Positions 2,623-3,568 of a stretch of DNA of 10,774 bases are shown piece after piece. The translations under genes and the position numbers were made by a program. The notes under the pieces were generated by a model. The model had not been told where the DNA came from. It did no database searches and saw only the letters and a list, made by a program, of their open reading frames with translations. How positions within the stretch are numbered: position 1 is the first letter of the stretch; each line of letters begins with the position of its first letter. The DNA is taken from IMG/VR virus record IMGVR_UViG_2531839477_000013; one strand, 5' to 3'. The DNA comes from a virus. Taxonomy: Duplodnaviria; Heunggongvirae; Uroviricota; Caudoviricetes.

Positions 2623-3568
2623 ACGCCCACTGGTTATAAACACGCAGCTGGCAATGAAAATTGGCTTAAACGAAGCCATTGTTTTGCAACAACTGCACTA
2701 CTGGTTGAGAGATACCAACTCCGGCATGGAATGTGATGGTGTTCGCTGGATTTATAACACAACGGAACAATGGCTGGAACAGTTCCCATTCTGGTCAGAG
2801 TCAACGTTAAAGCGCGCGTTTGCAAGTCTGAAAACGCTGGGGCTTTTGCGTTGTGAAAAGCTCAATAAATCAAAGCGCGATATGACCAATTTCTACACGA
2901 TCAACTATGGGAGCGAACTTTTAGATGGTGGCAAATTGAGCGAATCCATCGGTTCAAAATGCGCCGCTCCATCAGGTCAAAATGACACGATGGAAGAGGT
3001 CAAAATGAAACGCTCCATTGGTTCAAAACGACCCAATGTCATCGGGTCAAAATGGCCTGATGATCTTACAGAGAATACAACAGAGATTACTACAGAGAAT
3101 AAAAACACTTTTCGTCCGGAAGCTTCGCAACCGGACCCGCAGACGACTGAACAGGATTCTTTAACCCGGAACTCCGACGCGGTTGTGTTTAGTGCGAAAA
3201 AACGCCAGTGGGGTAGCAGGGAGGATTTGGCGTGTGCGCAGTGGATCTGGGGGCGGATCGTGGGTCTCTACGAACAGGCAGCCAGTGATGATGGCGAGAT
3301 CATGCGACCAAAAGAGCCTAACTGGACTGCCTGGGCCAATGACGTGCGCACAATGCGGATGCTGGATGGCAGAAGCCACAGACAAATTTGCGAAATGTTT
3401 GGTCGGGTTCAGCGAGATCCATTCTGGGTAAAAAACATCATGAGCCCGTCAAAGCTCCGCGAAAAATGGGACGAACTGGTCATCCGCCTGGGACGTTCAC
3501 CTGTACAGCGTTGTGTTAATCATATTTCTGAACCGGATACAGAAATTCCGCCTGGTTTCAGAGGATAA
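2603..3568 (+). CDS. Phage replication initiator: N-terminal winged-helix DNA-binding domain, iteron-containing linker, DnaT-like (primosomal protein I) C-terminal domain
   Basis: The ATG at 2603 (MSLLFAERPLVINTQLAMKIGLNEAIVLQQLHYWL...) is the first ATG; the track ORF starts at an upstream TTG at 2549. The C-terminus ...VNHISEPDTEIPPGFRG closely matches the E. coli DnaT C-terminus (...[14 protein letters not shown]) as I recall it. Five iterons lie inside the gene, as in lambda O. Confidence 0.85.
   Translation: MSLLFAERPLVINTQLAMKIGLNEAIVLQQLHYWLRDTNSGMECDGVRWIYNTTEQWLEQFPFWSESTLKRAFASLKTLGLLRCEKLNKSKRDMTNFYTINYGSELLDGGKLSESIGSKCAAPSGQNDTMEEVKMKRSIGSKRPNVIGSKWPDDLTENTTEITTENKNTFRPEASQPDPQTTEQDSLTRNSDAVVFSAKKRQWGSREDLACAQWIWGRIVGLYEQAASDDGEIMRPKEPNWTAWANDVRTMRMLDGRSHRQICEMFGRVQRDPFWVKNIMSPSKLREKWDELVIRLGRSPVQRCVNHISEPDTEIPPGFRG
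2945..3054 (+). repeat. Replication origin iterons: five direct repeats at 23-24 bp spacing (2945, 2968, 2991, 3014, 3038), core GGT(T)CAAAA(T/C)G, followed by an A-rich tract with three ACAGAGA repeats (3068-3098)
   Basis: Repeats read directly: tccatcggttcaaaatg, tccatcaggtcaaaatg, tggaagaggtcaaaatg, tccattggttcaaaacg, gtcatcgggtcaaaatg. Their placement in the linker-coding region of the initiator gene parallels ori-lambda inside O. Confidence 0.75.

Follow-up and report, generated by a model that had tools for sequence, protein, structure and literature searches.

A predicted lambda-style replication origin inside the initiator gene of a lambdoid prophage

We analyzed a 10,774-nucleotide (nt) stretch of viral DNA (Caudoviricetes; IMG/VR record IMGVR_UViG_2531839477_000013), called the window below; it contains the early region of a lambdoid prophage. 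On its + strand it carries the gene of an O-like replication initiator of 321 amino acids (aa) at 2603-3568. We concluded, with a probability of about 0.85, that positions 2924-3105, in the linker-coding part of this gene, are the vegetative replication origin of the prophage.

The conclusion was reached because six phased repeats (iterons), three of them with dyad symmetry, are followed by the least stable 40-mer of the gene, and because their order equals that of ori-lambda, with the iterons promoter-proximal and an easily melted tract distal. The gene encodes an O-like initiator in which a C-terminal domain of the lambda O type is combined with an N-terminal domain of the RepA/DnaD fold, and the repeats fall within the codons of a linker predicted to be disordered. 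Selection at the DNA level, natural swaps of domains, the periodicity of homologous loci and the presence of the same module in isolated phages also argue for an origin. In kind it would be a textbook lambda-style origin, composed of iterons and an unwinding tract; this origin family has not been studied before.

Iteron array

The initial annotation had described five direct repeats spaced by 23-24 base pairs (bp). A repeat search recovered the five cores, GGT(T)CAAAA(T/C)G at 2952, 2975, 2998, 3021 and 3045 (spacing 23, 23, 23 and 24 bp; span of the five good copies, 2952-3054), and Tandem Repeats Finder independently reported periods of 23 bp (2945-3018) and 12 bp (3068-3101). The number of copies, however, had to be raised to six. 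A degenerate copy, iteron 0 (GATGGTGGCAAATTGAGCGAATC, 2924-2946, + strand) with the core GGTGGCAAATTGA, precedes iteron 1 by 23 bp, in register, giving a full spacing of 23/23/23/23/24, and the array therefore begins about 20 bp earlier than had been annotated. In phage mEp460_4F5, a Klebsiella phage and the homologous loci L091 and L095, the position of iteron 0 is occupied by a good GGTCAAAGTGA copy.

The other copies, also read on the + strand, are iteron 1 (CATCGGTTCAAAATGCGCCGCTC, 2947-2969), iteron 2 (CATCAGGTCAAAATGACACGATG, 2970-2992), iteron 3 (GAAGAGGTCAAAATGAAACGCTC, 2993-3015), iteron 4 (CATTGGTTCAAAACGACCCAATG, 3016-3038) and iteron 5 (CATCGGGTCAAAATGGCCTGATG, 3040-3062), which adjoins the presumed unwinding tract. 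Together the iterons occupy codons 108-153 of 321. Iterons 2, 4 and 5 are 23-bp imperfect palindromes, with arms CATCRG and CYGATG around TCAAAAYG and 16 of 23 self-complementary positions each, and the centre of iteron 4, TCAAAACGA, is identical to that of lambda iterons 1 and 2. Iterons 0, 1 and 3 have self-complementary bases at only 10-12 of 23 positions. Runs of AAA(A) start at 2933, 2956, 2979, 3002, 3025 and 3049, in phase with the repeat.

All four matches to GGTCAAAATG in the window (at most one mismatch) sit in this array; the remaining one of the five good copies, at 3021, departs from the pattern at two positions. Four matches are not rare by count, since 0.89 were expected and 3 of 200 shuffles reached four; what is unusual is that they form a single array, all in phase. 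When self-identity was scanned in 140-bp segments at lags of 12-39, the array region ranked at the top of 1014 at lag 23 (z = 10). Neither the search for GGTCAAAATG matches nor the self-identity scan detected a second iteron cluster in the window. No DnaA box was found near the origin, and three weak matches elsewhere in the window were at chance level.

A GATC (Dam site), read from the sequence, occupies 3062-3065, exactly where the last iteron gives way to the first 12-mer (GATCTTACAGAGA). The arrangement GATC(T/C)TACAGAGA recurs in the enterobacterial and Xenorhabdus relatives and not in others. Several relatives encode a Dam-type methylase just downstream of the initiator.

12-mer tract

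Directly downstream of the iterons, three tandem ACAGAGAnTAnn 12-mers were found at 3068-3103 on the + strand (ACAGAGAATACA, ACAGAGATTACT and ACAGAGAATAAA; pattern ACAGAGAnTACw), corresponding to codons 156-167. The three ACAGAGA copies that had been noticed after the repeats thus start at 3068, 3080 and 3092, with a period of 12, and are three of the six copies in the window. The region 3065-3105, which begins 3 bp beyond the last iteron and is 71% A+T, has the lowest stability of any 40-mer in the gene (dG -45.6 vs window mean -55.3, z 2.4). We took the 12-mer tract as a presumed DNA unwinding element, and its conservation, described below, suggests a role beyond base composition.

The 40 bp of the tract showed no variation among relatives that are 78% identical overall, and were 97.5% identical to the corresponding 40 bp in O genes of Shiga toxin (Stx) phages which are otherwise unrelated. 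Within 350 nt past the N domain, at least two copies of ACAGAGA were present in 55 of 82 homologous loci, including those of Geobacillus, Anoxybacillus and Brevibacillus. When IMG/VR was scanned for pairs of adjacent 12-mers, at least 120 loci were obtained. Among the matches listed, the motif was in frame in 118 of 120, about 155 codons from the start of an open reading frame (ORF) with a median length of 308 aa, and 23-bp periodicity preceded the 12-mers in most of the ORFs. The N domains of these ORFs fell, again among the matches listed, into at least three unrelated groups (61 of the window type, 27+3 of the type of the Stx-phage locus L005 and 17 of a third type). The occurrence of the 12-mers in unrelated N-domain groups indicates that the tract is a shared cassette placed downstream of differing iteron sets.

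The conserved block, and the 12-mers especially, could instead be mainly a recombination linker between exchangeable N- and C-terminal modules, retained for shuffling. The 40-bp block in the Stx phages, flanked by unrelated sequence on both sides, would fit this idea, as would the recombination of N domains, C domains and tails to its left and right. Conservation of the 12-mer, however, extends from Enterobacterales to Geobacillus and Desulfuromonas, and its synonymous positions hardly vary, which points to constraint in every host; the 12-mer is also always at a fixed distance past the iteron array. We therefore regard a linker as the main function as very unlikely, and the roles of linker and of initiation site are not mutually exclusive.

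Selection at the DNA level

The repeats also appear in the protein, where IGSK, the peptide repeat named in the initial annotation, is seen three times, and TE-x-T three times. These peptide repeats, and the reading frame of the 12-mers, which was constant in 62 of 62 loci as well as in the 118 of 120 listed IMG/VR matches, would be expected if the repetition served the protein linker and had no function in DNA. The initial annotation had argued the opposite for the iterons, and our analyses agreed with it. The 23-bp period spreads the copies over all three codon phases (2, 1, 0, 2, 1 and 1 for the starts of the repeat units). The lag-23 self-identity over 2923-3062 was 0.556; when codons were resampled synonymously with the protein kept, it was 0.358 +/- 0.035 with a maximum of 0.496 in 5000, so that no resampling reached the actual value, and codon-order shuffles gave 0.251 +/- 0.041.

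A codon-aligned comparison with ten relatives, whose N domains are 64-79% identical, was consistent with this result. In the N domain, identity at codon positions 1/2/3 was 0.75/0.89/0.44, as is usual for a protein under selection. In the iteron zone the three positions were about equally conserved (0.79/0.82/0.77), and amino-acid identity, 0.62, was below that of the N domain. In the 12-mer zone the values were 0.97/0.75/0.93.

The reading frame was tried as a means of discriminating between DNA and peptide for the 12-mers and failed, being constant. Because of this constancy, codon choice was used instead. T-E-x-T/S units were gathered at the peptide level, leaving codons free, and 86 units from 35 distinct arrays were obtained. 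Of the 86 units, 83 used ACA for Thr (background 22%) and 82 used GAG for Glu (background 53%), and the freely varying base of the 12-mer was a second codon position (A31/C19/G5/T31, giving N/I/T/S). This pattern is the opposite of what peptide selection would produce, and shows selection at the DNA level. The codon analyses thus contradict a purely protein-level repeat, to which we assign a negligible chance. We propose that the IGSK and TENT/TEIT peptide repeats are by-products of DNA signals located in a tolerant, disordered linker.

Initiator protein

The whole product is covered by phrog_391, 'replication initiation O-like' (E value 5.6e-91), and the same gene is annotated as DNA replication protein O in phage PhiR42_1. 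Neither domain matched a Pfam or NCBIfam family: in Pfam, searched up to E 10, only chance-level matches appeared, and the sole NCBIfam match was the sub-threshold DnaT tail described below. An AlphaFold2 model, built from 45 sequences, had a confident N domain at residues 10-105 with winged-helix topology (predicted local distance difference test score, pLDDT, ~90), a disordered segment at 110-177 (pLDDT < 50), a helical C domain at 179-297 and a disordered tail. The iterons (codons 108-153) and the 12-mers (codons 156-167) both lie within the linker, since residues 110-177 are predicted to be disordered. The claim that the repeats are in the linker-coding part of an initiator gene was thereby borne out.

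The N-terminal winged-helix domain, which we presume to be the iteron-binding domain, is encoded by 2603-2923 on the + strand (aa 1-107). Structure comparison assigned it to the winged helix of the DnaD/RepA_N type, the fold of iteron-binding plasmid RepA. By sequence it is a member of neither RepA_N nor DnaB_2/DnaD in Pfam, and only PHROG families matched. BLASTP detected no similarity between the window protein and the N-terminal half of lambda O; TIGR01610 (phage_O_Nterm / Phage_rep_O), which lambda O matches at 5.4e-39, did not match the window protein. The C-terminal helical domain (aa 200-294, 3200-3484, + strand; pLDDT 80-89) is related to lambda O: BLASTP aligned the C domain of lambda O to residues 147-294 with 34% identity over 148 residues (E 5e-26).

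Rac oriJ / YdaU was considered as a known counterpart and rejected, as YdaU, a DUF1376 protein whose gene precedes that of the DnaC-like YdaV, belongs to a different initiator family.

Homologous loci and natural swaps

Eighty loci encoding the N domain (49-100% identity) were fetched from Enterobacterales, Pseudomonas, Xenorhabdus, Campylobacterales, Desulfuromonas and Bacillota; with the window and three phage loci, 83 were scannable. In about 60 of the 83, the top 21-24 bp periodicity of the 6.3-kb locus fell right after the N-domain coding region, with clade-specific iteron cores including GGTCAAAATG, GGGCAAATTGC, GTCAAnTTGTCC, TCAAAATGAACAG and others. The window's own repeats are likewise present in the viable phages HannyBb and mEp460_4F5 and in Klebsiella phages, so that for this clade the refuting condition named in the initial annotation, loss of the repeats from homologous initiator genes that still replicate, turned out in favour of its reading. 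Around the immunity region of the isolated phages HannyBb and mEp460_4F5, no replication module other than this one could be recognised.

The GGTCAAAATG iterons were retained when the C domain was a different one (Phg_2220_C, in a Klebsiella phage), and also when tails and downstream genes were different (lambda P, Dam methylase, PerC-like or DUF977). Relatives with GGTCAAAATG differ upstream, too, in having another repressor and cII region. In the O-like gene of an Stx1 phage, an unrelated N domain is accompanied by different iterons spaced by 23 bp and then by the same 12-mers. The iterons thus travel with the N-terminal winged-helix domain, C domains and downstream genes are swapped freely, and such natural swaps tell, indirectly, which protein the iterons belong to.

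Another protein of the early operon could in principle bind the repeats in place of the initiator, and the products of both neighbouring genes, cII-like/YdaT (2101-2622) and DUF977/Ren-like (3609-4031), are predicted to bind DNA. The GGTCAAAATG relatives with PerC-like, Dam or lambda P genes downstream and another repressor/cII region upstream argue against either neighbour, and so does the switch of the repeats that goes with a switch of the initiator N domain. Binding by a neighbour instead of the initiator is thus highly unlikely.

An initiator allele of 290 aa is present in some E. coli genomes (locus L168 1501-2373 of E. coli GCA_054853035.1; proteins P0136-P0141) and has an exact in-frame deletion of 93 bp (23+23+23+24), from iteron 1 to iteron 5, which leaves one good iteron and the degenerate copy. 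This allele shows recombination from iteron to iteron, of which only whole-array steps of 93 bp preserve the frame. The deletion recalls the classical lambda ori- deletions.

DnaT-like tail

The C-terminal tail of the initiator (VQRCVNHISEPDTEIPPGFRG, aa 301-321, 3503-3565, + strand) is nearly the same as the final 20 residues of E. coli DnaT. The match comprises the last 20 residues of the initiator, QRCVNHISEPDTEIPPGFRG, and the C-terminus of DnaT. With a 41-aa query, phmmer aligned the tail to PDB entries 2ru8, 6aep and 9zbt at E 3e-4, and residues 302-321 aligned to positions 160-179 of the 179-position NCBIfam DnaT model with 16.3 bits vs a cut-off of 201. The similarity does not extend over the full length of DnaT and is confined to the tail, on which the 'Primosomal protein I' label (RAST-type) in mEp460 solely rests. 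The same DnaT-like tail is borne by two different C domains. That an O-like protein, DopC, carries the C-terminal motif of DnaT has already been noted (Brezellec et al. 2017, PMC5509034).

A tblastn search of the 7.2 kb that lie beyond the initiator gene in the window gave no P (PF06992)-, DnaC- or DnaB-like sequence, nor does a homologue of P, DnaC or DnaB follow the initiator in HannyBb, mEp460_4F5 or the Klebsiella phage. The gene order of an initiator with in-gene repeats and no adjacent loader or helicase is the same in the isolated phages HannyBb and mEp460_4F5. All 26 loci whose initiators end in IPxGFRG had no loader or helicase homologue within ~2.4 kb downstream, compared with 26 of 55 other loci that had one (Fisher p 5e-6, relatedness ignored). 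Two initiators ending in ...WENTL were followed by lambda P, and 24 of the remaining 53 by DnaC-like or DnaB-like genes. Only the combined count of 'loader or helicase present' was used for downstream genes, because the split into DnaB and DnaC labels was made unreliable by one reference (the Stx-phage 'DNA helicase') which is IstB/DnaC-like.

The way in which DnaT brings in DnaB-DnaC has been stated as unknown (PMC13377028), and preprimosome structures of 2026 leave this recruitment unexplained and do not mention the tail.

Genomic setting

The initiator gene is 99.8% identical to that of PhiR42_1 (from ECOR13) and 98% identical to that of the isolated phage HannyBb, and was matched in 2797 of 5426 complete E. 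coli genomes. A cI-like repressor gene (1401-1808, - strand) lies to its left, followed by a pR-like sigma-70 promoter (TTGACT-16-AATAAT, 1831-1858, + strand; 10/12 matches in a consensus scan) upstream of the Cro-like gene (1857-2117) and by the cII-like/YdaT gene; the DUF977/Ren-like gene, which encodes a winged-helix product, is to its right. Transcription from the pR-like promoter would cross cro, the cII-like gene and the initiator gene, and hence the origin; a role in transcriptional activation is inferred from lambda pR. Within the N-domain coding region, a perfect-stem hairpin with T-rich flanks, TGGCTTAAACGAAGCCA, was found at 2662-2678 on both strands; this palindrome is a weak terminator-like consensus match only.

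The ORF after the DUF977/Ren-like gene (4028-4384, + strand, 118 aa) is a methyltransferase fragment that covers, in a DNA methyltransferase profile of 229 positions, only 52-165. The gene has probably been truncated; relatives have a full Dam-type gene at the same position. The transposase ORF at 5975-7390 (+ strand; helix-turn-helix and rve core, phrog_8463), where PhiR42_1 is annotated with two ORFs, is an insertion sequence (IS) at the place where intact relatives have nin-type genes. Cargo of the Qin type likewise lies to the right of the methyltransferase fragment in the window.

Rfam detected no structured RNA in the origin region, and its matches in the window were only DicF and sok, both located elsewhere. 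The DicF antisense RNA (305-356, - strand; RF00039, 76.7 bits) indicates a prophage of the Qin/dic type. The sok antitoxin RNA (5805-5976, + strand; RF01794, 104 bits), directly left of the IS element, implies a killer locus of the hok/sok type.

Proposed mechanism and evaluation

By analogy with lambda, we suppose that after derepression the pR-like promoter (1831-1858) would direct synthesis of the O-like protein and, at the same time, transcription of the origin. Dimers of the N-terminal winged-helix domain would then bind the five to six partly palindromic 23-bp iterons. The A-tracts of the iterons recur with the same 23-bp phase, so the bound protein would be expected to bend or wrap the DNA, giving a complex similar to the O-some, and the stress could be relieved by melting of the adjacent 12-mer tract at 3065-3105. 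Host DnaB would next be brought to the opened DNA. Since the module has no P, DnaC or DnaB gene, we infer that recruitment might depend on the C-terminal region of the initiator, with the DnaT-like tail as the most likely site, using the DnaB-DnaC or primosome machinery of the host.

Several observations weigh against an origin at 2924-3105. About 20 of the 83 loci, mainly those in which a short Bacillota initiator is followed by a DnaB-like gene, have no in-gene repeats; an in-gene origin is therefore frequent but not universal in the N-domain family. In three of these Bacillota loci (L146, L148 and L151), where initiators of 228-244 aa precede a DnaB-like helicase gene, the origin must be elsewhere or be organised differently. 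The structural matches to RepA and DnaD reflect a common winged-helix fold with a Foldseek E value of only 0.011, and the N domain has no sequence relation to the iteron-binding domain of lambda O. The right palindrome arm is missing from iterons 1 and 3. Instability of the 12-mer tract is only moderate (z 2.4), and the window has seven less stable 40-mers, mostly outside the listed genes. Finally, this prophage copy contains an IS element and a truncated methyltransferase, and may no longer replicate.

Some of these observations would also be expected if the repeats were true initiator-binding sites with a mainly regulatory function, such as autoregulation, copy control by handcuffing, or incompatibility with and exclusion of related phages, and replication were initiated at another site. 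Plasmid iterons do serve regulatory roles, the N-domain homologues without in-gene repeats indicate that origins can be elsewhere in the family, and seven 40-mers of the window are less stable than the 12-mer tract. The conserved, easily melted 12-mers always directly following the iterons, however, represent the layout of a complete origin; the window has no second iteron cluster; and the array is far downstream of the promoter and not over it. We consider a mainly regulatory array unlikely, and an origin at 2924-3105 remains the preferred reading.

A further, joint proposal is tentative, and we think it possible rather than probable. The 12-mer might be a sequence-specific origin element, perhaps a loading or priming site, read by a common factor from Enterobacterales to Bacillota, in initiators of at least three unrelated N-domain families, and the DnaT tail might replace the phage helicase loader as a portable peptide recruiting the host DnaB-DnaC or primosome. 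If true, this reading of the tail would point to the way DnaT hands over the helicase to the restart complex, for which the DnaT-like tail offers a concrete peptide.

With the putative origin located, a compact cis element of about 180 bp is available for building or curing prophages of a replicon that matches about half of the complete E. coli genomes. Misleading labels on the gene ('hypothetical protein', 'transcriptional regulator', 'Primosomal protein I' and 'DnaD-like helicase loader') can be corrected. One iteron type was found with four solutions to helicase recruitment (lambda P, DnaC-like, DnaB-like, and none with the DnaT tail), and one 12-mer tract with several iteron types. Owing to this natural series of domain swaps, the specificity of N domain for iteron and the recruitment of helicase by the C-terminal end are separately testable.

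Comparison with known systems

As a member of its kind the origin is new, because its N-terminal domain is not in Pfam and its iterons and 12-mers were not found in the literature search, in which GGTCAAAATG gave only unrelated primer matches and the 12-mer strings gave none. 

The N domains of the RepA_N plasmid initiators (RepA of pSK41 and pTZ2162; PDB 4pta, 4pql and 5kbj), of DnaD and of B. subtilis DnaB are comparable to that of the window protein without membership at the sequence level or a Pfam match. Those initiators differ in having another C domain, and the window protein is in a phage context rather than a plasmid. With E. coli DnaT, the initiator has only the last ~20 residues in common. 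DopC, a domesticated O-like protein, has the DnaT C-terminal motif as the window protein does (Brezellec et al. 2017, PMC5509034), but DopC has a P-like partner, DopE, and no iterons, whereas the initiator described here has iterons and no P-like partner.

Among Stx phages, 933W and P27 have origins with six iterons (PMC7466680). The Stx1a-converting phage Stx1_14040 (LC567819, L005) has, in the middle of the gene for an initiator of ~300 aa, five repeats with an exact spacing of 23 bp followed by GATCTTACAGAGAATACAACAGAGATTAC... 12-mers as in the window, and its 12-mer block of 40 bp is 97.5% identical to that of the window. It differs in its iteron core (GGGAAACCC...), in its N domain and C part, both of which are unrelated, and in being followed by a DnaC-like (IstB) gene.

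The initial annotation had likened the placement of the repeats to that in ori-lambda, and the likeness was strengthened by the promoter-distal melted tract and the homology of the C domain to that of lambda O. Differences from ori-lambda are also clear. The N-terminal DNA-binding domain has no sequence relation to that of lambda O (no phage_O_Nterm match), the iteron arms are CATCRG/CYGATG instead of ATCCC/GGGAT, the melted tract consists of regularly arrayed 12-mers, no P gene is downstream, and the protein ends in a DnaT-like tail instead of the lambda O tail. Both origins consist of tandem iterons spaced by about two helical turns (20/24/23 bp in lambda, 23/23/23/23/24 bp here), with palindromic symmetry that here is seen in iterons 2, 4 and 5, lie in the linker-coding middle of the initiator gene with the easily melted tract distal, encode homologous C domains (34% identity, E 5e-26) and share the iteron centre TCAAAACGA.

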